Part shown: positions 1,906-62,748 of the stretch, one piece after another
Layout of the letters: each line of letters begins with the position of its first letter
Numbering within the stretch: the stretch's first letter is position 1
Made by a program: the position numbers and the translations under genes
The notes under the pieces: model-generated
Database searches by the model: none
What the model was told of the DNA's origin: nothing
What the model saw: the letters and a program-made list of their open reading frames with translations, nothing else
NCBI GenBank assembly: GCA_964016885.1
Contig: OZ024740.1
Location: 312,914,001-312,978,000 of the forward strand
Length of the DNA stretch: 64,000 nucleotides
DNA from: Eledone cirrhosa
Taxonomy: Eukaryota
Direction: 5' to 3'

Positions 1906-2122
1906 CCTTGAGAACCTGCGTAAAGATGTTGGGAATTGTCTGAAATGCCACTCAGTCATTGGAGAAAAGATGTTTTTGAGAATATCTTCTGAGAATGTAT
2001 TAATATTGATGATGTTGAAGTGACGCAGGAAACGGGGTGTTATCGGGTTACGACCTCCTCCAGCCGGAGCCATTGCTGACAGTATCTTCATATCAACTAA
2101 CTCAAACATGCTAGTGTCTTTT
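1906..2122 (-). CDS. Dynein heavy chain exon, AAA3
   Basis: [36 protein letters not shown]...RRFSR|GTGAG; next exon not found inside the window. Confidence 0.94.
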
Positions 2123-4927
2123 CTGGATTGAATAAACAAATAAGCGCAAAATATATGACACAGCAGTATAACACGAAATTGCATGCTAGCAAGTGGCTGA
2201 TGAGGTAGAATGCAGTTGTCTGTCCATCTTATGTAATTGTTTTTCTGCGTGTATTTTCTACTGATACTATAAGGTCTTAATGGTTTAAAGCACCTAGCCA
2301 GTATCTGGGAGATATGGAGTCCAATTCCTCAGCGATTGATTGCAACTTCTAGTCCAACCCTTGCTAACAGGGAAAGCAGACGTTAAAACAACAATGATGA
2401 TGATGATGAAACTATAAGATCCTAGTAGTGTAATGGTTTGCATGTTTACTACATACACCTCATACTTAACAGGAGATGTATAGTTCAATTTTCTTGTGTA
2501 GTTTGAGAACTTACTTTTTTATGAGGAAGTACCAGGACTGCATGTGGTGACATGATAAATCCTTTCCATCTCACATGATCAAGCATTAAATGCCTCGGTT
2601 CTTCACCAGACAGTTCTGTATCTTCTTCAACAACTCTCTTTAATGTTTGGAGAGGACTTCTGTGTTTGTGTTTCATATTAGTAAAAGTTTTGTCGCGGGT
2701 TTGTTGCCTCTCATGGCATGACCTGCAAGTTGAAGACACCTAACACGGATGGTATGGCTAATGGGTGAGTGGTTGCCATAGAGAATTTTATTTGTAACAC
2801 AGTCAAGAGGTTTGTTGTTTTTTATCCTTCTTATCATTCGTGTGTAACAACCATCTACAGTTTTGGTGAAAGGTATTGTCACCAACCATGATTAACAGGA
2901 ATACAGTAATATTGATTCCACTGTAGCTTTGAATAATCTAAACTTTTGTTTTTGTGGTTATGTTAGATTTCCACACCTTATCTACCAAGTTCACAGAAGA
3001 CCATGAAATAAAAATACCTTAAATAAAAACATGAAGAGAATTTAAAAAGTGTTGTCCTACCTGTCATACCAGAATCTGTGATCTAACCACTGTCTTAGGA
3101 GTTCTATTGGAGGTTGAGCTCCATATTTTTCAAGAGCTGGCATATTTAAATCATCAACAAATACACACAATGTTTTTTCTGCTGAAGGACCATAGACACC
3201 TTTACATCGCCTTAAAGTACAAAGGACATATATTATTTAATGTGAAATCAATCAAATATAAAAATAAAGACATATTATATTAAAACATTTTGAGCAGAGT
3301 TTTTCTTTATTTTCTAACAATTGTCTTTTATGAGATGTAAAGCATTTAACCTACCTTTCTAGTTTGGAGGTAATATTATCTTGAACATGATTGGTTGAAC
3401 TTACCTTTCTAGTTTGGAAACAATGATATCTTGAGTCTGGTTGGCTGAAGTTTGTGCTGAGAAGTTGATGTTACATGTTGCGTAGGAGCCTTTATTCAGT
3501 TTTAAGAGGAAATTGTTGATAACAGAACTTTTCCCTGTTCCCGTGGGGCCAACAAATAGTAAGGGCTTTCCTTGATGAAAGAAAAGCTCTAAGAAAAACT
3601 TCTGTCTTTCAGTTTCTTTTGTATTCACTATTATTTTGTTGATCTGGAAATGGATATGAAAGGTATTATAAATCATCATCATCATCATCATCACCTTCAT
3701 CACTGTTTAACGTCCATTTCCCATGCTAGCATGGGTTACGCGAGTTGTTCCGTTGTGAGACAAGTCAGATCAGATGACCATATCTTGCTCACACAGAATT
3801 GTTTTTGGCTTGATTTCTACAATGTGGATTGGGTGTTTTTGTTGTATCTCCAACATGACCACTTTTCAGGTTAGACTGGGAGCTTTTGTATTGCCACCAA
3901 CACGACCATCTGAAGCGACTGACAGAACAATCAATCAATCACAGAGTAAACCCCCAGTTATGGCTGCTACTCATTTTCAGCTGAGTATGCTGGAGCAAAG
4001 TAAAATGAAGTGTTTTTCTTAAGAACACAATACACAACCCAGTCCAGGAATCAAACCCACAACATTATAATCGTAAGTCCAACACCCTTACTACTAGGCC
4101 GTGTGCCTCCACCTCATAAGATATAAGAGGTCCAGTATGTTGAACCAACACTGCTACTGTGTCTCTAACATGATGATAAAACAAGTTATACTTTGTTATA
4201 ACCACGGCAGCAATACTAACTATAACCATGACTAACAGAACTAATCAAAGAAGTTTTAATTACCTTTGTTTTCTCTGTGATGATTGTTGGATCAACAAGA
4301 CTTTCCCAAGTCTTCCAAGATCCATAAAGCTTCTTCATATAAATATAATCATAGATGGATCCCTTCTTAGGGATTAAAAGACTCCGAGAGAATTTCATTT
4401 CTTTTGGTCTACGAAAACAAGATGTTATTTTTATTAGAATAACAAACACTTAAATATAAATTGAATATATATGAGAGAGAGAGAGAGAGAGAGTAACCAA
4501 AGAATTACATATATATGTATATATAATAAATAAGAGACGATTTTAATCGTACATTTCTATTTTATTCATTATACGTATTTCGAAGATGTAAGGTAGTTAT
4601 ATAATAACTCACATCTACGAAATACGTATAACCAATAAAATAGGAATGTACAAATAAAACTGTCTCTCTTATTTATTATAATAAAACTTTGGATGAACAA
4701 AAACCGTGGAGTGCTTCACATTGTCAAAGAATAAGTCGGCAAATTTCTAATCAACCAGCTTTCTTCAATTAAATATATGCATATATATATGCATATATAT
4801 ATATAATTAAGGTTGTTTTCCAAAGTGGATAAAAAAAACTGTAAAATAAGGCATTCAATATGTTAGTAGAGAAGAAGCATATTTATTTTGTATTGAAATG
4901 ACTTCTACAGGACTAGAACTGTTTCAT

Positions 4928-4960
<33 letters not shown>

Positions 4961-7900
4961 ATATATATATATACATACAGTGGAAGGAAGCCACAGTAAA
5001 GGTAGACCAAGAAAAACCTGAGCAGAAGTAGTGAAAGCTGATTTCAATTGCTGAGATTCACAGAAGTGATGATGAAGGAATGCAGTGAATGGAGAGATGC
5101 TGTGCTGAAAAGGACCCATCCAACCCATGCTAGCATGGAAAAACGGACATAAACATGATGATGATGGTGATATATATATATATGTATATATATGTATATA
5201 TATAAATACTTCCTTCTGTTTACCTTGTGTTTATATTTTCAGTATCACATAGCTTGTGGAAGAACTCTTGAAATCTGAGACTTGAATCAAGGTTCAAAGT
5301 TGCTGATAGTGACCAGACCAGTGCAAACATGAAGTGGGCAATAATCATGTTAAATCTTTCTTCAGATATTTTTTCCTGAATTACTGAATATCCTGCCATA
5401 TCATCAATGCTAACCATCTCTTCATCTTGTTGTCCCTCAATATGTCTGGAAAAAACCACAGATTTTCTTTGTTTATGCCAAGAATTTGCTTCTTTATTTA
5501 AAGATTTATTTGAAGGAAGATAGGTAGTATTCACCGGTCTCTAGAGTTCATTTCAGCTTGCCAAGGTTGATGCATACAAATAATGTACATATGAATTATG
5601 GGTGTAACTGTATAATCTTTGTCAGCCCAATTAATAAGCCTACTAGCTTAAAGGTTGACAGATCATATCCTATCACTATTATTGTGCTGGGTTCAACTAC
5701 ATAACTACTTGAAGCTTGTTAACTCAGCTGACCAAGCTATACATAAGAATGATAAGTTTGGGACAGTAAACTGTGCAATAAATGATTTCTTTTGACTAGC
5801 TAGCATACTCTATTATATGTTCCAGCCGAGAGGCTGAGGCCATGCTGGGGCACTGCCATGCTGGGGCACTGCCATGCTGGGGCATGCCTTCTTTTGAGGG
5901 AAATGATTATGTTTCGTTTAAATTAATTCTGGTTGAGATTAAAGGAATTAAATGGCTGAAGCTTATAGATTAATGACTTAAAATTCTGTGAGTCATTGGA
6001 GCATCACCGAAGACTTCAGACTTCCTTTTTATGTACTTTTAACATGGAATATGAGGTGTGTCAGAAAAGTAACAGGACTTTTTCCCATCAATGTTTCTGC
6101 TAATCATAATTATGATATTACATTGATCAATGAATTGTGATATCACATTGACACACTTGATCAGTAAAATCTGTTATGTGGAAGTTGAATGACATTTTCC
6201 AGTTTACTATTATGTGATTTATTTAGTACTTCTATTCAGTGTTAATCCTGGAGAACCCACATAATGAATAAATCACTTTATGGCTCACACCTTCAGCTTT
6301 CTGACATCATAAGGCACAAGAGGCTCACATTAGTTGCACATGTGAAACATCGCAATGAACCTGCTGGCAGAGTTCATTCCTAGAAACCTGATGTATGCAA
6401 ACGAGTTGGGAGACACACCACCACACTGAAGGATGTTCAAGTGTTTTTGTTAAGATCCACAATATTGTAATTAGTATTTGAATATGAGCCATTGAAAGGT
6501 GAATAGATTGCACTATAGACTTGGCTAGTTGAGACCATGGAATTTCTATTTGTGATATGTGGACCTGAAATTGTTTTGACATAAAAAATGTGGGCCTGAA
6601 ATTGTTTTGACACCAAAAATGGGCCACAAGGAAGAAAAGGTTGAGAAAGACTGGGCTAAGCAACATTAGCTAAACAAATAGCTGGTATGAAGATTAAGTG
6701 AAGTAAAATGACTCAACTGAGAATTAAACTGAAATTGTAGACACAACTTACTGGGAAATGACAGCCATTTTACATCCTAGTAATAAATCACTAGTGTAAA
6801 CATTGGGGTAAAGATAGACAAAAGATATATCACAGGGGGTGGGGTCTGAGGGCTAGGTGACTTGATGACAATATCAAATGGAATTTACCTGACGTCTTCA
6901 AGAAGACATTCATATAGTTTCAACATGTTAAGGACCAGGTGCATATATTGACAAGGTACAATCTGAGTGCAGTATTTGGTAACAAAGTTCAAACTACTGG
7001 GAAGTAACCAATTGAAAAGATACTGAAGTAGAGAAATAAAGGAAATGTCAAACAATGACAGCAATAAAAATAATATGTGAAATAAACAGCATAAATAATT
7101 TAGAAAAAAAATACAAATAATTGTTAAAACTAAAAACAGAATGAAGAAAAAATTGGTCATGTTTGGGGATCCAGCCAGATTAGTTGGAGACAGTTGCTTC
7201 TGATAGGACTCGCTGGAAGGAGTGTTTGAGAACTCTGCCTCCATGACCCTCTCTTTTTGATGGTGTTAAGCGATAGAGTACAAGACTATCCTGGACAAGA
7301 TGCCTGTACTCCACAGGGTTAAACCTCCAGCTACTGCTAGTATTCACTTCCAGCTGAGTATACTGAAATGAAGTGTTTTGCTCAAGAACACAACACATAA
7401 CCCACTCTAGAAATCAAACTGATGGCATTATGATTGTAAGTCCAACACCCTGACCACTAGGCCACATGCCTCCACTTAGTAATGACTACAGTGACAAAAT
7501 TAGCCTATGGGAAAGGGTTTACCAGGACTCAAATCTTAGCCCTCTTCTGTTTATCATAGATTCTCAGATTCATAAATTCCTAAAACTCTTGTTTGAATGC
7601 TTTGGGAAATAATGGTAAGATTGTGTTCGTTTGTTTTTTAGCAACTATCCAGAAAGAGAAAAGTAGTCTCTATCCATTACCCATTTTTTCAAGATCTCCA
7701 AGATTAGTGGGAGAAAGGAAAGTTATTCTCAAATTGAATTTTTAGCCAAAATACTTACAACAGAGTGAATCCCACTAAAGGTCCTTAAGGTACTTAAGAA
7801 ACTGTGTGATAAATAAAGTTTACCTCTCAAGAGCTCAGAACATAAAGATTCAGAATAGATACAATCATCATCATTTAACGCCTATTTTACACGCAGCATA

Positions 7901-10900
7901 GGTAATTTTGATAATCCATCACCTGGACTGTTACTTTATGTTATAAACTTCTTATAGATTTAGTGAAGAAATTGTTTTTTAACAAACATTAAATTGCCAA
8001 CTTTGTATGTATGTGTGACGTCCGAATGAGTATCCTACACTCCACCTCCAACTATCTTACCCTCCACCTCCACCAGAACAAATACCAGCAAGATATTTTG
8101 TTTGATTCTCTAGTGACTCTACCAATTCACTTATGACATGAAATAATTGTTTCTTCTTTTGGCACTAGGTCAGCAATTACCCCAGTGCATTACTGGATCT
8201 TTATCGACCTCGTAAGGATGAAAGGCAAAGCTAACCTTGGCGGGATTTGAACTCATAACGTAAAGGGCCATAACTCTATGCTGCAAAGCATGGTGTCTGA
8301 TGTTCTATCGAAACTGCCAATAGCTTCTAATTTTATAAGCACTGGCCTGATGAGCTGCTGGGCTTGAGACAGACTTTAGAGTCATTATTAACTCTTACCT
8401 TGCTGACTACACCTCTATATTGTCCGTGAGAGCTAGTAAGTCATGACAGTCTAGAAGTATCTAGTACTTCTTACAGCTGAGAAATGAAAAACAAGATACA
8501 CAGATATAAGTGAGTATAAAAATAAAAAACAAATAAAATAAAATAAAATAAAATAAAATAAAATAAAATAAAATAAAATAAAAATATAATTTTGGCCATC
8601 ACAGACGACCAGTAATCTTTCTCTTTGGATTCCATTTTTTTAAATCTATGAAGGTTGACTAAAAAGTTCATAGGCTGACTATGAAGGAATAATGTTAGTG
8701 CTGTGGAATTTTGCATGTATTAATTTCAACTCTACTTATTAATAACTGCATTGTTTTTTTCCAGGGACTATGTTGAAAAATAAACCTCATTTGGTCAATC
8801 CATGAGAGTATCTTAGTCAGCATAAAATCTTTATAGTCGACCCTCAAGTATAATATACACTCACTTCTATTGTCTTCTGTTCTGCTTTAGAGAAATCTTC
8901 TAGATTCTTCATCCAAGATTTTACTAAAGAGTTCCATCCTAGTTGCAGTGCATCCATGTAAATCATACCACACCTGAAGAATAAGTAAGGTAACTGTGAG
9001 TTTGTAGTTAAGTTGCAATAAATACATTGTAGCAAGGATTGCAGTAAGATGCCAGTCCATTGCAAAGTTAAACCCCCAGCTATTACTGGGACTCATTTTC
9101 AGCAGAGTATACTGGATCAATGTGAAATGAAGTGTTTTGCTTAAGAACATAACACACAACCCAGTCCAGGAATTGAACCCACGACCTTATGATCACATGT
9201 CTATTAAATGTTTTGACTACCATTCCACACCTCTGCAATATATGTTCTTAATGCTATGTCATAACATGATTTGACTGTTATGCTGCATCCCACACAACAT
9301 GTCCTAATTGTCACATTCTATCTCTTGAAATCAACAGAAGGATAATGTGTCTTGTGATTGAGATGAAATACAAGGTGGATGTGATCTGATATCAGAGCTG
9401 TATGCCCCTATAAGCTAAATAAGCTATAGCTTAGGGCCACACTCTCAGGGGCCTCATTTTTTAAAATGTATATTTATTTTACCATTAGTTTTTATTCTTT
9501 AATACTAAATCATCAAAAATTATATATATATCATTGTCATCATCGTTTAACGTCCATTTTCCACATTAGCATGGGTTAGATGGGTTGTCCCATTAGAAGC
9601 AAGTTGGGTCAGGTGACCGTGTCTTGCTCTCATGTGTGTGTGTGTGTGTATTTATTCTTTATCATTAAGATTAATATAAAAAATAATAATTATGCATAAT
9701 TAATACAAAAGATCCGACTTCCGATAGGTACAAGCTGAAGCTGAAACATAAAGACAGTATGGCCCCACCCCCTTCCCACTGTACAGTGGTCATGTAAGAA
9801 CCATGGTAAAAAGCACCCAGTACTCACTGTAAAGGAGGTTGGTGTTAGGAAGGGCATCCAGCTGCAGAAACCAAGCCAAAATCAGTTCTGTATGTATAAG
9901 ACATGATCATCTGACCTGGCATTGCCCACAACAGGACAACTCATCTAACCCATGCTAGCGTGGAAGAATGGATGTAAAACGGTGATGATGATGAATTATT
10001 AAAAATGATTTTACCCAAATTTTTTTAGAGAAGAGGCTCAAGGGGCTCAAATTTCATATAGCTTAGGGCCTCAGCAGGTAAAAGTTTAACCCTGTTTGAT
10101 ATCATTATGCCATAGCTACATGTACATATAGAACCCCTCATATTCTAACCAACAACAACATTAACAAAGAAAGTAAAGAGCAACAATATGTGAAGTACAG
10201 AACAACAATACATGGAAATGTGAAGAACAACAATACATTACCTACTGACAGTGGCAGGAGATGCTTGTTCAAGATGACACACTTCAAATATCATATTCTG
10301 TTTGTTGTTCATCTGTATAATTTCTCCACTCATGAGGCACAGCTAAATAGAGAAATTACATAGAAGTTACAGTGAAGGTGTGTGGCATAGTGGTTAGAGA
10401 GTTGGATTTACAATAGTGAGGTTGTGAGTTCAATTCTCAGACTTGGTGATGCATTGTGTCCTTGAGCAAGACACTTTAATTCCTGTTGCTCCCTCTGCCA
10501 GGAGTTGTGACTGGTTGATAGTATCAGCAATAGAAACATCGTTTCCTTGGTCTGATTTGACAACGTCCGCCCCACTTGGCGAGTGAATGAGGTTTGGGAT
10601 CTTGTCAATCGTTCCTAGAGATTGTGAAATACATATACACTGCTCATCAAAAATATATATTATCGTAGGTGTGATTCAGATATTCTATTGTATTTATGGG
10701 TCAGAGACTGGAGTGTGTTGGGGTCTTTATGTTAATCACTCAGGCCAGTTTTTGTATAGAGACTAAGATGTGTCTGTATGTGTAGCAGCAGCTGGACATT
10801 GGTCAGTTTTTTCCATCCATAGGCGTATTTTACTTGATTTTCTAAGCTATTATTTATAGCAATTGACTGTGTTTCCAGTTAATTTCTGTGTCTGAGATTC

Positions 10901-11677
10901 CTTCATTTTATATGAACTTTATAACTCCTCAGCGTTTTGAAAGTTTGATACTTTACTTGGTCTATGGCAGTGATAACACCTACTCCGTGGTCATTTCCAA
11001 ATCAAATATTTTCTCTATTTTCTTCGCTTATATCTTCTTGGTTTGTGTTTGCTGTAATTCTTTTATTGAGTAACTAATTATGCAATATGCACCCAATGAT
11101 GTCGTCAGGACTTTTTCATAACCTGACCATTGAAATATATATAGTGTTTTTGCAACAATAAAACTTTAAGGGAACTTCACCAGTCATTTTAATCAAAATA
11201 ATAACTCCGTTTCTGCACCACCAATAGGATTCAACATCAAAGATGGATGAGTTGCAAAATGCTGAGTGCTTTTCCTACTATTACATCAAGGTTAACTATA
11301 TGGGCTAACCAGTTCTATCCAGTGGTAAACCACCAAACTTAAATGTATATATATCATCATCATCATCATTTTATGTCCGCTTTTCCCTGCTTACAAGGGT
11401 GGGATGGGAACTGATTCTGGCTTGCTTTCTACAGCTGGATGCCCTTCCTAACACCAACCTCATTTACAATGAGTGCTGGGTGCTTTTTTTCCATGGTGCC
11501 TACATGTCCACTTTACAGTGTAGGCTGAGTGCTTTTTTGCTGTGGCACCTCCACAACCACTTTGCAATGGAATGATAGGGACTCCAGTCCTATCATCTCA
11601 TTTCTACAGCTGAGTAAACTGGAGCAATGTGAAATAAAGTGTCTTGCTCAAGGAAACAACACTTTATTTCGCATTGC

Positions 11678-11762
<85 letters not shown>

Positions 11763-14700
11763 CACATAGCTTAGTGGTTAGAGCATTGGCCTTGCAATCG
11801 GAAGGTTGTGAGTTCAATTCTCAGACAGGGTGATGTGTTGTTTCCTTGAGCAAGATACTTTATTTCACATTGCCCCAGTTTACTCAGCTGTAGAAATGAG
11901 ATGATAGGGACTGAGGTCCCTATCATTCCACTGCAAAGTGGTCGTGGAGGTGCCACGGAAAAAAAGCACCCAGCACTCACTGTAAATGAGGTTGGTGTTA
12001 GGAAGGGCATCCAGCTGTAGAAATCAAGCCAGAATCAGTTCCCGTCCCACCCTTGCAAGCAAGGAAAAGCGGACATAAAATGATGATGATGATGATGATA
12101 TATATATATTGGAGAATATTTCTAGAATATTACTCTCTGTACCTTTATACCTGTTTATCTTTATTCACTCTCCCTACCCACCTAAGAACCACACTACCTA
12201 TAACCCGGATTAACTGGGGACGAAATATAGTCTTTTTGCACATTTCATCGGGTTTTATCACTTTCAACCTCACATCACGTTTGGTAACACGCGATGATCC
12301 GACAGATGTGACGACATTGCCGGCTGCACGCTGGGCACCCGGGTGAATAAGCCTTCCTGGAGTGCTCGGAAAAATTAATTTCCATTTCTTTTGCTAGACG
12401 ATATCACTCGGAACGGCTGACACATGGTTAGGAAGGGCTGGCCAGGATCTGCAGTCGTCGCTGATTATTGACTGCTAAACAAGGGCTTAATCTTTACTCT
12501 ATATACTACCCTGAAAACTTATTGAGAATATCTATAATACACTTAAACTTTTTCATAAAAGACTCTTTCTGTAAATTCTTTAACTAAATCTCACAACCCA
12601 AACCTTAAACCTTATTTCTCTTATTTTTCTAATAACTCTAAACATAAGTTTAATGTTCCTAATTGCTAACCAAAATTTCTGTCCACACATTACACCATAC
12701 AGACGCCCACTATATATGCCTTTGTTAAAGATATATATGCTTTGGAAAAAACATTTTTCGTGGCAATTTCTAGCACGCACGGTCAGCCTGATTGTGGCAT
12801 GACCTTTTCTCTTTGACGGGGAGGTAGTAGTACATTATAAGCTTACGCCCCCTCACCAGATAGTCATAAGTAGACTTAATAATCAACACTCGAGGGCGAC
12901 TGACTGAGATAGAAGCTGCTAAATAGTCGGTCGTCCTCTTGTCTCTGATTTTATCTGTTATATTCCTTTGTTATATTTCGAATACCTGATTCGAATATAT
13001 TTCGAATACCTGATGATATCACCGGATTCATAGTATAATAAACCTTTCAAGGATTTACACCAGTCCAGCCTCCTGTTATTTTATAATAATTAACTCCGTA
13101 CTCACACCACCAACTACACAAACGAAGACGGGTGAGTTGCATTACGTTGAGTACTCTCCATAATATTACATCGAGATTGACCATACGGAATGACCAGTTC
13201 TATCCAGTGGTGAACCAACTAACCTAAATAAATATATATATATAATTAAAATGCGCGGGTGAAAAATGCACAGAAGTATATTTAAAAATTCTTTTTTCTT
13301 TAATCCAACAGAATGAATAATTTTATGATTGCTGCACTAAATATAAATATCAAAAATTGGATATTAAATATTAAAAAAAATGTTTTTTCGTGTTAGTTTT
13401 CTGTCAACTCACATATATTCGAACTACTCACAGAACATATGAAAAAACATTAAAGAAATATTTAATATCTAATATTTGATAAAATTGTTATACTAATTAA
13501 AACCTGTTATATTTAATGCAACAATTATAAAATTATTCATTCTGTTAGATTAAAGAAAAAATAATCTTTAAATATACTTCTATACATTTTCACCTTCACT
13601 TTCTAGTTATCACCTTTGTTCTGTATAGAACTTTACCCCATTTTTCAACAACAACAACACACACATACATACATACATCATCATTCATCATCATTTCATT
13701 TTACGTCCTCTTTTTCCCTGCTTGCAAGGGTGGGACGGGAACTGATTCTGGCTTGATTTCTACAGCTGGATGCCCTTCCTAACACCAACCTCATTTACAG
13801 TGAGTGCTGGGTGCTTTTTTGCCGTGGCACCTACACGACCACTTTGCTGTGGAATGATAGGGACCCCAGTCCCTATCATCTCATTTCTACAGCTGAGTAA
13901 ACTGGAGCAATGTGAAATAAAGTGTCTTGCTCAAGGAAACAACACATTACCCGGTCTGAGAATTGAACTCACAACCTTTCGATTGCAAGTCCAATGCTCT
14001 AACCACTAAGCCATGTGCCTCCATACATATATATATACATATATATATACATACATATATATATACATAAATATATATATATAATATAATATAAAATCAA
14101 AAGATGGTTAAAAGAGTTCCATGTATTTTATTATGCGCATTTCAAAAACAAATATCATCATGGGATGATATTTGCGTTTTCATCAGATAAAATAGGGAGA
14201 CATGATATGAAGCTTAAAAAACACTTGCGAGCAGTGAAGTGTCAAATTAACATAGGAAAAATAAAATTAGAGGGATATATGAGATTGGAAAAAAGGAAAG
14301 GAAAGGGGAAAGAAAAGGTAAGGAAGAGGGAGAAAAAATGTCTATTTTCCATGCTTGCATGGGTTATACAGCTGTCACATGCTGAGGCCAGACTGGTCAG
14401 GTGACTAAGTGTCCAGTTCATATGCTTTGTTTCAGTTTGGTTTTTATGGCTAGATGTCCTTCATAAAACACACACACACACAGACAGAGATAAGTAGGTG
14501 CATATTATTGACCAGACTCAAATATCAAAATAGATATGTTTGCTAAACTATTAAGAAATATTTATACAGAAAGACACCATACTGTGTTATTGAATATGAT
14601 CATTTGACACAAAATAGTTTGTTTCAACTTGACTCATATTTCATTTATCTATTGTCTGTTTATAAAAGGTTTGAATTTCAGGTGGTTGATTGAAGTAGTT

Positions 14701-14793
14701 AATTATATATCAATCAATAAATCAATCAATACTAGAGATCTAACAATCAATTGCAGCTCCAAGCAAATGTTAAATGTATGAGGAAGAAAAAAA

Positions 14794-14831
<38 letters not shown>

Positions 14832-50800: not shown

Positions 50801-53800
50801 GTCGAGGTGTAGAGCTAGACAGAGTGTATTATAGTGAAATAAGATAACAAGGATGATTGATTACTCCTTCATTAAGTTTTTTGGCTGGTGACGCGCGTTT
50901 CGCCACTGATCAGCCCAGGGTTCGATCTGTATCAAGCTGACCTGACTCTGTAATCCCCGGCTCGTCAGACCCCTTGTAATATTAATGGAAAAAAAAAAAA
51001 TATATATATATATGAAGGTGCATGGCTTAGTGGTTAGAGCATTGGGCTTGCAATCGAAAGGTTGTGAGTTCAATTCTCGGACCGGGTTGCTCCAGTTTAC
51101 TCAGTTGTAGAAATGAGATGATAGGAATGGGGTCCCTATCATTCCACTGCTAAGTGGTCATGGAGGTGCCACGGCAAAAAAGCACCCAGCCCACACTGTA
51201 AAGTGGACGTGTAGGTGCCACGGAAAAAAAAGCACCCAGCACTCACTGTAAATGGGGTTGGTGTTAGGAAGGGCATCCAGCTGTAGAAATCAAGCCAGAA
51301 TCAGTTCTTGTATGAACAAGACAAGATCAACCAACCGGATACTGCCCACAACAGGACAACCCGTCTAACCCATGCTAGCGTGGAAGAACAGACATAAAAC
51401 GGTGATGATGATGATGATGATATAAAATACATGTATTATTGTGAGTGCATCACCTGCATATTTAGACTCTTTATATGGATTGTCTGGCAGATTCCAAAAA
51501 TTATATCATTCAGAAAGCATTGATTAACCCGAACAAAAATATTTGTCTAAGGTGCCATGAAATGGGATCAAAATCAGAACCACATGGTTGCATAGCTAAC
51601 TTCTTACATACACAGCTATACTTTATATGTATATATATTTATACAAAGATTTGAATATTATTAAAAGATATGGAAAGTATAAGGACAATAGAGAGCAAGG
51701 GGGAGGGGAGAGGGAGAATGTAACAGAAAGAGGAAGAGAGAGAGAATATATGATATAAAGAGAGAGAGAGAAATAATGTGCAAGTGAGTGAGAGAGGGAG
51801 GAAGAGAGAAAGAGAGGAAGTACGAAAAGGATATAGAAGAATCAACTCCATTAATGGACTGGTTCTTTTTTTTATTGACATTGAAAGGATGAAAGGCAAA
51901 GTTGACCTCGCAAAGTTGACCTCACAAAGAGTTGGAATGAATGGTACAAAGCATCCTATCCAATGTTCTAACAACTCTGCCAATTTGCCAAACTAAATCA
52001 ATATCACTGAAGTAATATTCACTCTGATTTATAATGTAGCAAAGGGAGTTAGTGTGAAAAGGAATAAAATAGGAAATAGAGACATGAATAAAGAAAAGAA
52101 ACAGTGATGAGAGACAGAGACAAGACTGTAGGATCATTCCTCAATAAAGAAAAGAAATAGAGATGAGTGACAGAGAAGTAAAATAGACTTACAAGACTGT
52201 AGGACCATTCCTTAATCTCTGATTCAAAAGGTCCAATAAATGCTGAACCTTTCATTGTTGCAGTCTTCACAATATGATCTTCAAGGAGGGCTTGGATATC
52301 ATCAAAAGCTGACAGTATAAACAGTTCTGTGTCTTTGTAAGGAATGAAGTTGAATACCATATTTTCCCAGTCACCCTTCATTTTAGATAACGCCTGAAAA
52401 TGGCATAGAGAAACTTATTATTTTTTTTAATCGATTGAGAAGATCCAAGACCTCATTTGCTTACCTAGTGAGGTGGAACTCATTAAATTGGACCAAAGAA
52501 ACAATGTTTCCATTGGTGTTTCCCTTGCTGATCCTTTCTACTAGTTGCAACTCCTGGCAGAAAGAGTAACATGAAATAAAGTGCCTTGTTCATTGTCTGG
52601 TCTGGAAATCGAACTTGCAACCTCATGATTGCAAATCCAATTATCTAACCACTAAGCCACACACCTTCACTTGTTTTACAGTCAATAATACATTTGTAAA
52701 GTTTAAGACAATTTCATTATTGATACACTTCTCAAAAATATTGGTATTTGTTGACTGAGATATGAATTAGCAGATATAGACTTTTGATAAACATCTTATT
52801 AAGGGCTACATTATTGAATCTACCCTTCTATTTTATTAGACTGCATGTGTAATTTGAAGGCGATTTGGTTGATATTTCTAGTAAGTTCAACAACAGCATT
52901 AAGCAACAATGAGGTGCCACTCACCCAATTCACATTTGAGTTAGTCTATTGACAAAATCTTTAAAAACCCATATGAAAAAACAACAAAATAAATCACTTA
53001 AACATTAAAACCAAAAGAGTAATATTTGTAGAGGTTACATTCGTATACAAAAACAACAACAAAAAATACTATTTGGTTCTAATGTTTAAGGAATTTATTT
53101 TTTTCATATGGTTACATACCTATATAGATGGAAAATTTGGCAGAGTTTTCAGAGCATTGGTTATTTGTCTCAGATTTCTGGTTAAGAAACATCCACCAAT
53201 TCAGAAATTACAATTATTAGCATTCGTTACACCTATATATTAAACACACTCTTAAACTCACCTTTTCTAAAGCAAATTCTTTATTAGCTTGAGAGCTTAT
53301 ACCAGATAGTTCATCCAAATATCTTTCAAGATCCAGCTTCAATACTTCTGACAAAGGTGTATTCTCCTCTGGTACCATATCAAAACCTACCTAAATTGAT
53401 GTAGAAACATAAATATTGTTTATAATTGTCATTAGCACTGATGGGAGTCATCAAGGAAGATCTCCAGAGGCTTGATGTCACTTTGAAGGATGCAGAGAGG
53501 CTGGCACAGGACCACCAGCGATGGAGGGCACTGGTCAGCTTTATGCATGATGATGCCCCTGGTCACTGACCTAAGATGATCCCAGTCTAGAAGAAGAAGA
53601 AGAAGAAGAGGCCCCCTCCCCACCTTGTTCCATGGAAAAATTGTCTTGCAGGACATTGGTCTGTGGAGCAAAAAGGTTGGTGACCACTGTCATATTTATT
53701 CTGGTACTCTGAGTTCAACTTCCACTAAGTCAACTCTGATTTTCATCTTTTAATAGTTGACAAAGTTCAATACTGAGGTTGATTTTATCTCTCTCTCACC

Positions 53801-56800
53801 TACTCTCTCTCTTCCATTCTAGATTGTACTTGTTATTCAAAGGTCCGCCCCATCACATTGTGTCCTGCTGATTTCACTTAAGAATTACATTAAGGCATGG
53901 ATGGATTAACCATTAAACAAAAACACATACTAAGAGCATCAAGGGAAGAGGGGAGCCATTTTATTCAAGTTAAATGCAATAGTCATTCAAAAATTAAAAA
54001 AATGTAGACTTTATATATAAGGGGCATCACAATCTTTTAAGTACACCAAAAGAACTTAATCTAGCTTGCATTAATGGTACATGTGTCTATGATATAGCCT
54101 CCTACACATCAATTTTAAGAGTTAGGATTAGAGTTAAGGTCTGATTGGCACAGAATCCTCACATCCACTCAATCAAGATTACCAAAGAACAAAAATCAAG
54201 TATAGTATTATATTTAGTCATATTAAAAACTTAGATAAAAATCTCAGAAATAAATAAATAAGTCATCATCATCATCGTTTTAGTGTCCACTTTCCATGTG
54301 AGCAAGGGTTGGACTGTTTTACATAGACCAAATCAGTACTGAAGCAGGGCTACTAACCTCCCAAACAGGCTATAACAATTGATCTCAGCAAGATTTGAAC
54401 TGAGGACTTAAGGAAAAAGATAATATCATTTACAAAACTACCTTTTCACTCATCATCTTCCAGTGTCTAGTTTTTATACCAGGATTACAGAGTGCTTTCA
54501 CAAGAGGAATATTTATTTTAAATTTCTCCAGCCTGTTTTTCATGGCTCTGGCAGCTTTGAATGGTCCTTTCTTGTCTGGGTGATTAAATACTTGTGTTAG
54601 TTTGTAGGCAATCCTCCATAGTATCTGGATCTGAAAGAATTACATTTTCAAATTTAACGCCAGTTAATGTAATAAAATAAAATATTCTTTAGCACAAAGT
54701 CAAGTGAGTGAGAAATGGTTAAAGTAACATGATTAAAAGTTAAGGTGAGTATACTAAATTGTGGTTTTGTTCCAGGTTAGTCATGATCAAGCAGATCAGA
54801 AGTGTTCTAGTCACAACCATCTAGATCATTTTTTTCCCAGATATAAGCTTATGTGATCTTTCCTTCTTTTTAAAATGGTATGATGTGATTTGAGGGCCAT
54901 TCAGTTACTTTTCTAGCAGTTTCTGATAGACTCAGGTACACAAAGTTGTTGTTGCTGTTACTGTTGTTTAGACTCATTTCAAACCTGTTCATTAAGAGCC
55001 ATCATCAAAGGTCATTTTGAATATCCATATCTGTAATTCAAAGTGACCTTTCTTTCAAGAGGATAGGGTGTGAATTGAGGGAAATTTGGTTGCTATTTCA
55101 AACAAGTCTAGCGACTATATAGAAGCTCTCTTACAGGTCTAAAATGAAGTATAATCTGTGTGTGTGTGTGCATTCACATGTGTATATCATTGTGAGTAAA
55201 TATTTGCATATGAGGAGTTCAAAGTAAAAGAGACAGTGATACCAGAGGTTTTTTTTCCTGATGAAAAGAAATGAAGTTTTGGTATTGAAATGTTTGCCTA
55301 TGAGTTAAAGAACACACACAGAAAGGTATTCTAAGAACTGACTAACATCTCAGTGAATTTATTGTTATATACTAATGTCAGCCATAATAAATTGTAAAAA
55401 ATCTTACTTCTTTATCCACCTCTTCAGAATTGACATTCAACAAAGGTCCATTCATCCAACGTTCATACTGTGTCTGTAATTTGACAGCGTTTGACCAGAG
55501 TCTTTCGTAAGGTTCAAGAGCAGTAGCTAGAAACTGAATCTGTTCAAACTCACTGATTTCTTCCAGTCCCAACATTATCTCTTCTTCATTGATTTTCCGT
55601 TTCTGATGAAAATAAAAAAAATTTGCATCCGTATGTATATATAGATTCAAAATAAGGTGCACACAGGATAAAGACAATGAAAAACAAACAAACCGGAAAG
55701 ACAGACAGTCCTATCTTCTCAGTCAACCTCTGGAGATCCCTATGGTTTTGGTGCATTAAGGTTGAAACATTCATTCCAGTGCACATTGGGACATAAAACA
55801 GGTAGATACAAGTTATGCCTTTAGGCAAATTACACAAATATAGTGTGCAAGGGCTTAGCTAAAGGAGAAAAATATAGAAATGAGGGAATAAGGACTGTAA
55901 TCCAATGGGCAGACAAAGAAGGAGACTGAGGCGTAGAAAAAGTAAAAAGGAAGAATAGGGAAAAAATGATGGGATGTCTATTATATGATAGTTTAAAAAA
56001 AAAAGCTCTGAATCTGTTGATTTTATTAACTCTTTCATAGAACCAAACTTAGTATAAGTTGGACGCTCTGTATGTATCTATACTCATGTAGAGATATATA
56101 TATTTCTTCATTTTATATATAATATACTCCCTTATGGTAGAATGAAAATTTGGCCATATTGAACTACTACTTCTAGTAGCACGTAGTCTGCCATTGTCCA
56201 CTTTTACTACCCTCCTGTTGGTCACTTGTCATGTGATAATTCTTCCATTCGAAATTTTCACTGACAGCGAATGGCTGGGAATTCTTATGTTGAATTTTCC
56301 TTCTGGACTGAGAAAGTCTCCTGATGATTAGAGATTTCTTGCAATATTCTACTCGGAGTATTGTTATTTTCTCAATGATTCTGCAGTAGGGACATTAAAG
56401 TGAGTAAGTAAAGATTTTTTTATCTTGTTTGCTTTTCCCATATATGATATATATATATCATTTAACATATGTTTTTTCATGCTAGCATGGGTTAGATGAG
56501 TTGCCCCATTGTGAAATAAGTCAAATCAAATGACCATGTCTTGCTCAGACTGTTTCTGTCTTGGTTTTTACAGCTGGATGCCCTTCCTAACGCCAGCCAC
56601 ATTTACCATGTGGACTGGATGCTTTTCATCATGGCACCAAAATGACCACTTTACAGTGTAGACTGGGTGCTTTTTGTCATGTCACTAACATAACCACTTT
56701 ACATGTGAGCTGTATTCAGCATGGAAAAGCAGATGTATAGCTAATTCATTTTGGGAGTAATTTCAGCAATTTCATACAAAAGATTCTATAAACTATTTCC

Positions 56801-59436
56801 ATAGTAATTATTGCTGAAGTTAAATGATTATAATTGGCATTGAATATTTGCAGTACAATAGTAATGTTATAAAGAATAAATGTTTTTTCATAAAGCTAAT
56901 CAATCCTGCCTCACATGCTGTGATATATATTAAGTTATTGGCTGATGTCTCCTCAATCGTATTGTTAATCCTGTTGTGTTTATTGATATTCTAATGATGT
57001 CTATTGAATGTCATTGAACTAAAGATAATTTGTTGACAAGTTGAGACTAGATCGTTGGTTGAAGACATTTCACCTCACACCATTAATACTCTCAAGAAAA
57101 ACATGAAAGTTATTCTATATGATATATACACCTCATAGAAAGTAGAAATCCTTTGAGAAGTGAACAGCTTAATATATTTCAAATATTTCACACTTATGGA
57201 ACCAGAGATAACCTTAGAAGCAGTTTTATAACTAAAAAAAAACAAAATGACCCAAAACATCCAAATAGACATTGATTTATATAGGAGTTTGCTGTCAAGT
57301 GTTTTTAAGTGCTGTATAAAGGTGCGAAAACATAATTATAAAGAAATAAAAATGAAATTATTCATTCCATATATTCTCGGGGCCGATACACTTTTGACAT
57401 TGATTAATCAATTTCTAGTTAATTTTGCAGTTTGTTTTGGGGGTTACAAAATGTGTGCACATGTGGACATACAGAGGATAAAAGGAACAGGGCAGTTTTC
57501 TTGTGTTTTTTGTTCCCACCAATGTTATTGTACATATAAGGGGAACATTATCTTCTCTGAGTTATCTACAGAAATGCCTACACACACAGCATAAAGGGAA
57601 CAGGACAGTTTTCTTGTGTTTTTGGTGGAAAACAGAAGTGCATTCATGGTTTCCCTTTCTTAGGCTCTTGTGATGTAAGTGAAGTGAAATAGTAACACTA
57701 CAGAATAAAACACCAGTTTATGGATTTGGTTCACAGAAACTTATCCTCTGCTACCTGTCACTCTTTATAACATGACACTATATTATTTGGTTCACAGAAA
57801 CTTATCTCCCCCTGCTTGTCACTTTTTATAACATGACACTATATTGGCAGTATCGGTAGATGGTCGGACGCCATGCTTTGCAGCATAGAATTATGGCCCT
57901 TTATGATCTGACTTCAAATCCCGCTGAGGTTAACTTTGCCTTTCATCCTTACAGTCACGCACTGGGGTCGATTTAATTGACTTTCCCCTCCCCCAAAATT
58001 GCTGGCCTTGTGCCTATATAAGAAACCATTATTTGGTTCACAGAAACTTATCTCCTTCTGCCTGTCACTCTTTATAACATGACACTGTATTATTTGTAAA
58101 TTAAATAAAAGAATAATTTATACCTCTTTTTTCAAAACATCCAATTCACTTTCAATGATACGAATCTCTGACAAAATCTGTTGAGCTTCTGACATTCTGT
58201 CTTTAGTTGCAAATTCCTTCAACCTTTTAGATAAACTGTTTACTTTGTCTAGAATCTGTTTACGGCAACCATTCAGCTTCTCTATAGCCAAATCATGTTG
58301 TTTTTGAAGTTGACTTTCACTGCAATGGATTAAAACAGATGTAACATATAAAGTATCTGTAATTAATATGTATGGAGGCTGGCTGAAAAGTTCATAGGCT
58401 GATTATGAAGGAGTGATGCTAGTGCTGTGAAATCTTGCATTAATTTCAACTCTTCTTATTAATAACTGCATTGATTCTTTCCAGGGACTATGTTGAAAAA
58501 TAAACCTCATTTGGTCATTTCATGAGAGTATCTTGGTTAAGCTATGACGGATTGATGCTAGAGCTGTGAAATCTTGCATGCATTAATTTAAACTCTTCTT
58601 AATAACAGCATTGCTTCTGTCCAGGGACTATGTTGAAAAATAAATCTCATTTGGTTATTCCATGAGCGTATCTTGGTCAGCCTATGAACTTTCAGCTGAC
58701 CCAGGTATCTTTGACTGCAGGTGTTCAATCAGGAATGGTCTGATAACACCAACAACATTGATATCTATTTAATATAGATGACCAAAACAGCCTACTAAAC
58801 ACATTAGCGGGTTAAGACAGAACAAACTAAATATCATATACCAATTAGTTAACACAAATACAACATATTAAACATTATATATAATTGGGAGTATTGGTAG
58901 AGGGTCGGACGCCATGCTTTTGACGTATGGAGTTACGGCCCTTGCCATTCCGAGTTCAAATCCTGCCAAGGTTAACTTTGCCTTTCATCCTTACGGGGTC
59001 GATAAAATAAAGTACCAGTAATGCACTGGGTAATTGCTGGCCTTGTGCCTAACGTAGAAACAATTATATATATATATTGTAGGATGGTGGTGAGTTGTAG
59101 GATTCGGTATAAACCAACACGCAGGTGGCAAATTGGCAGAGTTGTTAGAACATTAGATAGAATGTTTTGTGGTATTCATTTCAACCCTCTTCTCTTTGAG
59201 TTCAAATCCTGTTGAAGTCAACTTTGCCTTTCAATAAAACAAGTACCAGTCAAGTACTAGGGTAATTTCTTCTATGTTTCTTTCACACTTTCTCTCACAT
59301 CCCCTCTCAATCCATCTTTGAAAGAAATCAGCTGTATTCAAATATGGCGAGGAGATGGGCTCTGCCAGGTTAAAAAATGTCCTAGAAATGCCATATGTCA
59401 ATATGGTGCCCCTACAACTCCTGTGGAGATACAAGG

Positions 59437-59480
<44 letters not shown>

Positions 59481-62400
59481 ATCAATCTGGGACTTGGACA
59501 GGTGCATATCTGAGATGTAGGTCCACATCTTCCCCGGATTCTTCCTAAACCTTAGGTTGGTCACTATCAAGTTTGCTTCCAGCAGGGTGTCTCTCAGTAG
59601 TCTTCCATTTCGGTTGGTTTTGTTATGGAAGTATCAGCAAGGATCTTCACTGCCCTCCTTACTCAGATGTGCATTGAAGTCCCCCAAAACAAGCAGGATG
59701 TTGTGTGCTTGAGTGGAGAACATGCGCCTTGCACTGGAGAAACACCAGGACTCTGGCTTTACTGTAGCACCGGCTCAGAACAGGAGAGTTAAAGCAAAAA
59801 AGGTATCAGATACTGAATTTGCCAACGACATAGTTTTGGTGACAAATACAGTGAAGGATGCAGGAGGTTGAGACTGTGTCGATGAGTGTGGGGTTGAGAA
59901 TGAATGAGACTAAAACAAAATATCTGGTAGAGAATGTTGAGAAGCCAGAGGGGATCACTAATGTAGGCAGGAAGCTTCTAGAATTGGTTGAGGACTTCCT
60001 GTATTTGGGAGCAAAGATTGGGAATACATAAGATGATATGGTCGAGCAAAGCCTGGGCGGAAGTTGATGTGGTTGAGAGAAAGAGCAAAGCCTGGGCGGC
60101 GTGTCACAGCTTGAGATCGGTGTGGAAGTCGGACCTTCGTAAAGACCTGAAAATCCGCCTCTTCATTGCTGTAGTGGAGTCTGTGGTGCTGTACAGGTCT
60201 GAGACTTGGACACTGACCAAGAAACTCACTCAGATGGTGGATGGGTGCTACACGAGAATGCTGAGGATAGCTCTGAACATTAATCAGTATACACTGAGGA
60301 TGAAAAACTCAGCTCAAAAGTGACACAGAGGAGACTGAGGTTAGCTGAACATGCTCACCGACATCCAGAGTTGACATTGCACTCAGTGCTCCTGTGGGAA
60401 CCCCTACATGGACACACTGGAAGAGGAAGACCAAGGTTAACGTATGTTGATGCCCTAAGGACAGACACTGGTCTGTTGGAGACGCAGGACATGGCAGCAA
60501 TAATGAGGGACAGAGACCACTGGAGAGAACTCGTCCATGGATCTCGGGAATTTTACCCGCCCTAGATATTGTTATACTTTGGGAGGTCATGTTGCCAATA
60601 AGAAACACACGCACCAGTTGATTTCACTCCAATTTATTATAAATTAAATTATAAATTTCCGGTTGGTTGGTTGGTTCCACAACTGGACGGTTGTTCATAT
60701 ATTGTCAAAGTTCTTTCGTCACACATTCTGTGACCTCTTCAGTGACTGGGGATTCTTTTCTTTGTTTTGTGACGAAAGAACTTTGACAATATATGAACAA
60801 CCGTCCGGTTGTGGAACCAACCAACCAACCGGAAATTTATAAATTTTTAAATTTATAATTTAATTTATAATAAATTGGAGTGAAATCAACTGGTGCGCGT
60901 GTTTCTTATTGGCAACATGACCCTCCCAAAGTATAACAATATCGGTTTCAACACACGTTTTCAGATAAAGAATCTTGCTAAACAAATTCAGAAACGAAAT
61001 ATATATATATGAAGGCTGGAAGATCACTGATGAAGGACTAAATTTATTCATATGTAACCCATTTGCAACCATGCAGCATGCCATGTTTTCATATATTTAT
61101 ATATATATTATCATCATCATCATCAACGTTTAACGTCCGTGTTCCACGCTTGCATGGGTTTGGACGGGGGTAGTCCCACTTGAGGCAAGAGTGATCGTCT
61201 TGCTCGCATAGGACTGTCTGGCAGGTTTTCTACAGTTGGATGCCCTTCCTAACACCAACCACATTTACAGTGTGGGTCTGGGAGGTTTTTACCGTGTTGC
61301 CTACACGGCCACATTACAGCGTGGACTGTGTGTTTTTTTGTCGTGACACCTACACGATCTCATTTGTTTCGGCCTGGATGGTGTGGCACCAACATAACTT
61401 TACATAGAACGGGGTGGTGTGGATGGGGTGGGGGTGGGGTGGGTGGGACGGGGGGGGGTATTTTGTTAGAGGTGGTGGGACGGTTATATATATATATATA
61501 TATATATATAGATAGATATATATATGTGTATATTGTAGGATAAGACACTAAGTTTGATTATCCTTATGAACAACATTTTACAACTCTGCTACAAATATTC
61601 AATGTTAATCAATTTTATGCAAGAATCTTTGTTAAGTTATGTTCCAAACAGTAGCTTAACAATGAGAAACTTAGTTATCTTACTAAATCACTCTAAATTT
61701 TTTTATTATTTGAAAACCATAGGCAATGTCTTTCATTAGAAATAAGGTAATGAACGGGTTAAAGTGACTTCAATGTTTAACTGGGACTTGTTTTATTGAT
61801 ACCAGAAAAATCTGATTTGAATTAAGAGTATATAAACCATAATTGAATAACACAAAGCTATTTTGTTTGGTGCTCTACATATTCTGCCAACCCACTGAGC
61901 TCAGGAAGAAGCCTCTACATGGTAAATTTAACCTGCTAGAAATACCAACTACATCTCTCACAAATTATGACATTACCATTTTTAATAAACAAGTATATAT
62001 TAAACAATGTGTTCACAGGTATACAAAAAGAGGGAATAATCATGGCTGGATTACGTTTGAGTATAGGCAGGACTGTATTGCCATTAAGCCAATTAGGTAT
62101 TACAAACAACCTGTTATTATATAATTGCCATAATCACCATCATCATCGTCATTTAACTCCCATTTTCCCTGCTAGCAAGAATTGGCCAGTTTGTCACAGA
62201 TTGAGTCAGTACTCAAGTGGAGTTACTGACTTCCAAGATGGTCTAGGGGCTCTGCATCTCACATTTCCCCATTCTACCGGGTGCTTGAGCAGGCTAATGC
62301 TCACATTTCACTTACAAAATATACCCATGTTGTTCCAAGTGATTTTAGCATAGCACCAGCACTAGGGAGGTGTGATGTCATTTATGTGGATGAAGAGTTT

Positions 62401-62696
62401 TCCCAACCCTTTTTTTGACAGGTTTTCTACAGCTGGATGCCCTTTCTATCACCAACAACTTTACAGAGTGTACTGAATGTGTTTATCATGTAAACCACCA
62501 ACATCAGGAAGGTTATATATATATATATATATATATATAGAACCTTCTTGGTGTTGGTGAACTAACTGTTGTGGAACTACTTCTACCAAACTCGTCCCAT
62601 GGATTGAGTGCTCTACTATTATGGATATAACCCTCCAGTGTTATACAATTATATATATATATATGTATATATGTATACATACATACACACACACAT

Positions 62697-62748
<52 letters not shown>

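Follow-up and report, generated by a model that had tools for sequence, protein, structure and literature searches.

Minimal type I hammerhead ribozymes with a long stem II and a short palindromic helix III have been described in the pseudo long terminal repeats (pLTRs) of Penelope-like retroelements, where a genome holds numerous sequence families, most copies are solitary remnants of truncated elements, and opposite-strand pairs lie close together (Cervera and de la Pena 2014, PMC4209133). The diversity of these hammerheads, the targeting of (TA)n and an octopus element of the Hydra clade with a hammerhead (Hydra-1_Obim, Octopus bimaculoides) have likewise been published (PMC4209133; Craig et al. 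2021, PMC8557442). The role of the ribozymes is still debated: cleavage in vitro is poor and, in one reconstituted system, that of an anole Penelope-like element, the ribozyme cleaves only with protein and is dispensable for insertion in vitro (PMC11167929). The anole protein nicks AT-rich DNA and primes reverse transcription inside the tail beyond the ribozyme (PMC11167929). All comparisons with published systems made here refer to portions of the cited articles. In the present study, a stretch of 64,000 nucleotides of contig OZ024740.1 of Eledone cirrhosa (positions 312,914,001 to 312,978,000, assembly GCA_964016885.1; hereafter the window) was analysed, in which a first-pass annotation had placed four intact hammerhead motifs and three relics within introns of one dynein gene. 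The features described by Cervera and de la Pena recur in these motifs, which are very probably pLTR hammerheads of several Penelope-like families, present as short 5'-truncated and often inverted insertions next to (TA)n at a density typical of the genome and likely inert for the dynein gene. The motifs are of a known kind and ordinary for their own genome; they are notable for their genome-wide number and their structural subtype.

Motifs were sought with a strict descriptor and with a relaxed descriptor permitting one extra base after A9, and dinucleotide shuffles (local ones for the strict descriptor) were used as nulls. The strict descriptor identified two motifs in the window, 14124-14194 and 50887-50971, both on the minus strand and with six-base palindromes, a number reached in none of 200 shuffles. 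The relaxed descriptor added 21477-21521 (plus) and 60704-60746 (minus) and nothing further, giving four motifs against a shuffle mean of 0.14 and a maximum of 1 (100 shuffles). According to the descriptor, the core CUGAnGA, GAAA and UH together with stems I and II is present in all four, the motif at 21477-21521 having one additional G ahead of stem II, and the positions and strands of the first-pass annotation were thereby recovered. An Rfam scan, also proposed there, was run on the window and returned no hammerhead family at the gathering score and none among 81 matches at E values up to 10. This silence is what would be expected of chance matches in AT-rich, repeat-rich introns, and one loose genome pattern indeed caught a coding stretch of an RTE long interspersed nuclear element (LINE) in 32 of 100 listed rows, as counted by eye. 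Against chance stand the excess over shuffles in the window, a genome-wide pattern with 126,476 matches against 532 for its reversed-pattern control, and palindromes and covariation that hold across families; a chance origin is practically negligible on these grounds and was rejected. The first-pass annotation had also asked whether the motifs are any more frequent than in shuffled sequence, and they are, both in the window and in a genome sample (48 against 0.55).

Covariation was assessed in 23 families with a six-base loop III, each represented by one majority row, against 5000 shuffles. Stem II pairs 2-3 were paired in all 46 cells and pairs 5-8 in 77 of 92 cells (shuffle mean 40), while the inner palindrome positions, which lie outside the demands of the descriptor, were paired in 43 of 46 (shuffle mean 27); none of the 5000 shuffles reached the observed pairing at pairs 5-8 or at the inner palindrome. 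The lack of covariation that the first-pass annotation had named as speaking against its proposal was thus not observed. Stem II pair 4 was paired in only 7 of the 23 families and formed a pyrimidine-pyrimidine mismatch in 15 (C-C in 11). Pair 1 was G-C in 5 of the 23, and an extra base after A9 was found, among the six window families introduced below, in family B only. Both the extra base and a G10.1-C11.1 pair are conserved in the motifs of PMC4209133 and missing in most families here. The pair-4 mismatch is not mentioned in the first half of that article, whose supplementary alignments may already show it. The mismatch lies approximately where the canonical loop 2 begins and, speculatively, may be a docking site. 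The families offer ample material for covariation analysis, and a conserved mismatch in stem II is already indicated.

For the definition of families, the genome was searched with each site, which yielded 577, 2138, 61, 566, 696 and 2261 first-look candidates, of which 40 were scored each and which are not copy numbers, and 25-30 loci per family were fetched from the top matches (numbered with the prefix L). Six repeat families were obtained: A (14124), B (21477 and 60703), C (50887), D (4572), E (11090) and F (13010). The full descriptor was kept among the fetched top loci in 29/30 (A), 25/30 (B), 22/30 (C), 9/25 (D), 4/25 (E) and 18/25 (F) cases, so that the relics noted near 4572, 11090 and 13010 represent decayed members of families that retain complete motifs at other loci. 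Loop III is TGCGCA in A, CGCGCG in C, TACGTA in D, TATATA in E and TGATCA in F; the non-palindromic GAAC/GGAC of family B (21477 and 60703) limits to the other five families the earlier description of stem III as mostly palindromic. The first-pass annotation had counted about five unrelated families sharing only the core. Two of its sites belong to one family (B), motif and tail of E and F show homology at 65-78% identity, Hydra-clade motifs are common to A and C, and A, D, E and F share a stem II layout.

No Penelope open reading frame (ORF) was found in the window, where the family copies are 260-450-nt ends. Reverse transcriptase (RT) and GIY-YIG ORFs, for which the first-pass annotation had recommended a search, were located upstream in other copies of A, B and C. 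Among all fetched loci, 21 of 89 motifs of A type, 16 of 51 of B and 6 of 27 of C had an endonuclease on their own strand at most 1.6 kb upstream; these counts are not independent, as some loci overlap. The distance between endonuclease and motif was family-specific (A approximately 1.0 kb, B 0.2 kb, C 1.1-1.2 kb). Copies end downstream of the motif at few fixed points and upstream at scattered points. In L262, L264 and L266 the motif is followed by the ORF in the same orientation, the ORF of family A starting approximately 225 nt past the predicted cut; inverted flanks were observed in L031-L034, L182 and L191, and partial tandem and 5'-inverted copies together with 5' truncation are pLTR features of all three families. 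L182 holds a near-complete family B element with an inverted copy of its end on the 5' side. Judged by sequence, the A, B and C motifs are the 5'-truncated ends of ORF-encoding Penelope-like elements, and the Penelope-like origin proposed in the first-pass annotation is borne out by the ORF linkage, the order of pLTR and ORF, and the truncation pattern.

The family B ORF of L182 matched Pfam RVT_1 (E 7e-4, below cutoff) and GIY-YIG (above cutoff), with a predicted protein of Octopus vulgaris as best protein match (72%). Six of eight proteins, namely the ORF pieces of A, C and further Hydra-type elements, had no Pfam match below E 0.01, and the RT and GIY-YIG of A and C were assigned through motifs and tblastn. 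The family A ORF contains RW(I), DKT, YRDD and a CxCX5C linker, lacks CCHH and has CxxC and CxH around the last conserved residues (E and N); family C has the same linker and endonuclease type, its N-terminus not being recovered. A and C thus appear to be Hydra-type by motifs, clades having been assigned in this way and not from an RT tree including named references. With the endonuclease-bearing (EN+) elements of the Hydra clade, including Hydra-1_Obim, they share CxCX5C, the absence of CCHH, CxxC/CxH, (TA)n and a pLTR hammerhead (PMC8557442). Of the clade's DKT/RWK motifs, A has DKT but RWI in place of RWK. The U10.1-U11.1 of families E and F, a tolerated hammerhead variant already known, also occurs among the listed Hydra motifs (PMC8557442). 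These listed hammerheads differ in having fully paired stems II and loops III of 1-3 nt, in contrast to the 6-nt palindromes and the pair-4 mismatch found here, a comparison to be read with the caveat that a descriptor requiring full stems would hide mismatched motifs. The Hydra-1_Obim motif (PMC8557442) differs in sequence from those of all six families, and the untranslated regions here are approximately 1 kb. Family B, with a CX4CxxC linker followed by a C-terminal GIY-YIG with CCHH, appears to be of Neptune/Nematis type (definition CX2-5CxxC), the two clades not being told apart; it departs from these clades by DKS in place of DKG and by its non-palindromic loop III.

For genome-wide estimates, 17 large contigs were sampled at regular intervals, at round positions, in sixty stretches of 10 kb (600 kb of a 3.0-Gb genome); the 48 motifs of this sample fell into 18 clusters. 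The targeting of (TA)n proposed in the first-pass annotation was confirmed, as (TA)4+ occurred within 300 nt downstream of 45 of the 48 sampled motifs, while random positions gave 22.4 on average and never more than 32. An inverted copy of the motif's own 3' half was found at most 5 kb upstream in 17 of the 48 and a tandem copy in 6. With 11 query pieces, Penelope-like ORF pieces accounted for approximately 3.6% of the 600-kb sample (L192-L251) and occurred in 15 of the 60 stretches. Different Penelope-like families were often nested at one (TA)n run.

The first-pass annotation had favoured short, ORF-less elements, and complete retrozyme-like elements spreading as small circular RNAs were weighed as an alternative. 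For A, B and C, which hold all four intact motifs, a retrozyme identity was rejected, as in other copies they extend directly upstream into RT and endonuclease ORFs; the description as ORF-less applies to family F and to the elements in L203 and L211. Of the six window families, only F is ORF-less as observed: its 2,077-nt unit occurs in head-to-tail and inverted arrays without a long ORF, gave no tblastn match at E up to 0.01 to 11 Penelope protein pieces, and was collinear over 1.5 kb or more with 19 of 20 further loci fetched. In addition, a tandem unit of 1,293 nt without an ORF lies at L203:5749-7042 (minus); its hammerhead follows the E/F layout (U-U pair 1, C-C pair 4), and it constitutes a second long non-autonomous family. 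At L211:5116-6526 (G000:C2:389000001-389010000, minus), a 470-nt unit is repeated head to tail and four hammerheads are present, with a stem I of 7 bp and CTAG as loop III. Like the published non-LTR retrozymes (Cervera and de la Pena 2020, PMC7229834; Li et al. 2026, 10.64898/2026.07.22.740005), the three are ORF-less, head-to-tail and have one type I hammerhead per unit. The L211 monomer is predicted to be strongly self-paired (-152 against -97 +/- 7 kcal/mol, 20 shuffles), looks like a classical non-LTR retrozyme and fits that class well. Family F and L203 differ in exceeding the published 51-972 bp (period capped at 1000) and in not being strongly self-paired; the F monomer also far exceeds the 170-400 nt given for other retrozymes and is predicted to fold little better than shuffles (-467 against -451 +/- 10 kcal/mol, 4 shuffles). 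Non-autonomous Chlamys elements such as MRC1 resemble family F in being ORF-less, with pLTRs and head-to-tail insertions, and differ in clade and host, most Chlamys lacking a canonical hammerhead (PMC8557442). The absence of a proven ORF for D and E is a further point in favour of small circular-RNA elements, which as an explanation of the window are nevertheless unlikely. Within the Penelope-like explanation, family F would be non-autonomous and mobilised by proteins of autonomous families.

A diverse genome-wide population, as anticipated in the first-pass annotation, was recovered by direct pattern counts as well as in the sample. A 22-mer from the 3' half of family A had 23,403 exact copies in the genome (control 0). 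The pattern consisting of the core, 16-46 nt, GAAA, T-R-N-N-Y-A and TH is that with the 126,476 matches given above, and 28 of its 30 matches inside the sample passed the pairing test. The family B pattern had 18,388 matches (control 0), and the two patterns together yield approximately 145,000 motifs, or one per 21 kb. The C-N4-G class pattern CTGANGAN{34,64}GAAACNNNNGTH gave 20,925 matches against 1,369 for its control; it is the pattern that caught the RTE LINE coding stretch and was left out of this total. Extrapolation from the sample gave 2.4e5 (bootstrap 1.4-3.4e5); it over-predicts three direct counts 1.2 to 2.1 times, and therefore an all-class total of 150,000-200,000 motifs is preferred, many of them arms of inverted insertions and an intact core being no proof of activity. 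For comparison, 126,247 hammerheads have been counted in the 28-Gb axolotl genome, over 6,000 in Acropora, approximately 9,000 in Xenopus and 4,000 in coelacanth (the last two in PMC4209133, with another descriptor), and 235 matches in giant squid by Rfam. Rfam-based counts can miss hammerheads of the present kind, none of the four window motifs having been found in this way. The approximately 145,000 motifs match the axolotl scale in a genome about a tenth the size, a rough comparison as descriptors differ. Schistosoma has a count of some 50,000 in a small genome, and for this reason no density record is claimed. In the mostly open-access literature on hammerheads and Penelope elements in octopus and cephalopods, with Repbase outside this scope, no report was found of such a scale, of the stem II mismatch or of ORF-less units longer than 1 kb; Penelope-like elements are listed in the portion considered of an O. 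vulgaris repeat annotation from 2026, in which the whole word 'ribozyme' does not occur (PMC13282606).

From published Penelope-like systems, the element RNA would be a tandem precursor, its endonuclease would nick AT-rich DNA, and reverse transcription would start in the tail downstream of the ribozyme and usually stop early. Since copying would start just downstream of the ribozyme and stop early, the ribozyme would be the part most often inserted. In the parent RNA, two motifs of the same family may pair via the self-complementary loop III, or an element protein may help, and the precursor would be cut into units; a lone intronic copy without a partner of its own family would cut slowly or not at all. 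The three sense copies in the dynein pre-mRNA belong to three families with differing stem I arms, and A and C have no partner of the same family. A mixed A-C dimer was considered, whose loops are predicted to pair (-8.9 kcal/mol) and whose stem I arms mismatch, and such a swapped dimer was judged unlikely. The predicted cost of adopting the ribozyme fold in context was +25.5 kcal/mol for 60703, predicted to be trapped in a long hairpin with its own inverted arm, about +14 for 50887 and about +3 for 14124. For family C (50887-50971; L037-L066), the catalytic core is predicted to base-pair, in the fold of lowest energy, with sequence of the long stem II region, and the loci are a median of 7.3 kcal/mol away from the ribozyme fold; this predicted misfold may serve as an intrinsic off state. 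These models make cleavage of the dynein pre-mRNA unlikely, and cleavage of consequence to the host is improbable.

The same origin would also allow lone intronic copies to cut host pre-mRNAs and thereby affect splicing or RNA turnover in thousands of genes, whether as monomers via a tertiary contact at the stem II mismatch, as dimers in trans or with an element protein. Locally, 32 of 45 sampled motifs are predicted to lie within 4 kcal/mol of the ribozyme fold, yet with 150-nt flanks only 11 stay within this limit and 17 exceed 10 kcal/mol. The pair-4 mismatch, kept in 15 of 23 families while neighbouring pairs covary, would suit a tertiary contact but is explicable by selection on the parent element alone. 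The anole ribozyme cleaves once its protein is added, and RNA-seq in anole showed no read ends at the cut site (PMC11167929); published minimal motifs gave no monomer and low dimer cleavage (PMC4209133). Copy numbers are very high, whereas insertion orientation in the window is unbiased (three sense, four antisense; n=7). Widespread cutting of host transcripts is accordingly doubtful on balance. Equally doubtful is the wider proposition that octopods carry a load of 150,000-200,000 hammerheads, among the largest of any genome, dominated by an undescribed subtype that is distinguished by three pairs in stem II, a conserved pyrimidine mismatch, a long distal helix and a six-base palindrome in stem III; this subtype would be active in vivo, in trans or aided by the element's protein, and would cut a substantial fraction of long pre-mRNAs in introns, with ORF-less 1.3-2.1 kb units forming a size class intermediate between retrozymes and full Penelope elements. 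Since the approximately 145,000 or more copies comprise dozens of families, include intact as well as broken motifs and occur in both orientations in introns, activity can be tested by purely genomic means through orientation bias matched for family and age.

Several observations weigh against an origin as inert Penelope-like pLTR copies. The 14124 motif is predicted to be approximately 3 kcal/mol from the ribozyme fold and has an 8-bp stem I and a strong palindrome, and pairing in trans between family A transcripts would be possible given at least 23,403 exact copies of the 3' half. The family A unit, approximately 3.6 kb by estimate, is longer than the published Hydra range (generally under 3 kb). 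An upstream endonuclease accompanied one of 13 intact motifs in D and none of 5 in E; the D case resembles a nested neighbour, the neighbours in L103 and L189 are not common to other copies, and an ORF partner for D, E or F, sought in the fetched loci, was in no case tied to the motif. Clade calls rest on motifs, the descriptor demands some pairing so that stem I and stem II pairs 1-3 are partly forced, and the families are not phylogenetically independent.

Exons of the host gene were mapped from 63994 down to 1942 by tblastn with mollusc dyneins, and best PDB matches of the protein include DNAH3 and DNAH7; for exon 62814-62984 the PDB search was uninformative and placement relied on tblastn. 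All seven sites are intronic, between mapped exons, with the A, E and F sites occupying one common intron, and the minus-strand exon map bears out the earlier statement that three intact motifs are sense to the dynein pre-mRNA. The window density is ordinary, with 4 motifs in 64 kb against approximately 5 expected from the genome sample, and the dynein gene is not special as a hammerhead host. Domestication for dynein regulation, as in the conserved intronic hammerheads described in amniotes, would be compatible with three intact motifs sense to the transcript; each copy is, however, 90-98% identical to dispersed family members, flanks are conserved to the same degree as the motif, density equals the genome average and three of seven copies are broken, which makes retention for such a function highly improbable. 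For the dynein gene the insertions are likely ordinary transposon litter and inert passengers (Table 1).

Table 1. Host gene, hammerhead motifs and Penelope-like insertions in the 64,000-nt window.
Feature	Coordinates	Strand	Description
Host gene, axonemal dynein heavy chain exons (DNAH3/DNAH7-like)	1942..63994	minus	Pfam, PDB matches, exon map
Type I hammerhead motif, family A	14124..14194	minus	Stem I 8 bp, loop III TGCGCA; predicted cut after 14132; sense to dynein
Type I hammerhead motif, family B	21477..21521	plus	Stem I 5 bp, loop III GGAC; predicted cut after 21516; antisense to dynein
Type I hammerhead motif, family C	50887..50971	minus	Stem I 3 bp, long stem II, loop III CGCGCG; predicted cut after 50890; sense to dynein
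Type I hammerhead motif, family B	60704..60746	minus	Stem I 4 bp, loop III GAAC, H17 = U; predicted cut after 60708; sense to dynein
Family A 5'-truncated 3' end (pLTR) of Penelope-like element	14080..14339	minus	97% to L003; ORF upstream in other copies
Family B element 3' end, motif and tail running into ORF start	21440..21760	plus	97.5% to L182; ends in (TA)n
Family C 5'-truncated 3' end	50712..51013	minus	91% to L056; (TA)n at both ends
Family B insertion with 5' inversion	60563..61010	minus	Arm 60768-61010 is the reverse complement of motif 3' half and tail
Family D relic	4518..4819	plus	Two inverted arms, each only GAAA-TACGTA-TA half; CTGAAGA half missing
Family E relic	10958..11354	plus	Core disrupted at 11093-11099 (CCAATGA); TATATA as loop III; (TA)n at the end
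Family F 5'-truncated copy of 2,077-nt tandem unit	12122..13234	plus	Core intact at 13010-13016; (TA)n at both ends

The family A insertion terminates in the (TA)n run 14023-14093 (Tandem Repeats Finder), and in the window copy of family F the stem II 3' arm, GAAA and loop III are deleted. Contigs of one sample were aligned on 10800-15000, where no usable empty-site allele was found among the 15 of 230 joints listed; depth was very high over repeats with many repeat-derived joints, and is there no measure of copy number. Heads resembling tRNA, probably of short interspersed nuclear elements, were observed at 13956-14013, 51023-51080 and 11767-11824, two of these being separated only by a (TA)n run from the insertions of A and C.

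The Rfam model RMST_9, a long non-coding RNA region, passed its gathering score at 40358-40550 (minus), exactly on the dynein coding exon 40356-40589, so that dynein-like sequence is probably included in the model. Moreover, the dynein introns contain two broken Helitron-like copies at 22633-24736 and 29059-31879 (minus), the first with a PIF1 helicase by Pfam. Fragments of RTE-like LINEs with a PHD-like finger behind the RT were located at 44129-46482 and 49550-50605 (minus); it is a coding stretch of LINEs of this kind that imitates the hammerhead pattern across the genome. Additionally, a 25-nt tandem repeat with 32 copies was identified at 16249-17041, and inverted-repeat pairs resembling miniature inverted-repeat transposable elements (133-156 nt, approximately 1 kb apart) at 25099-26548 and 32891-34105.

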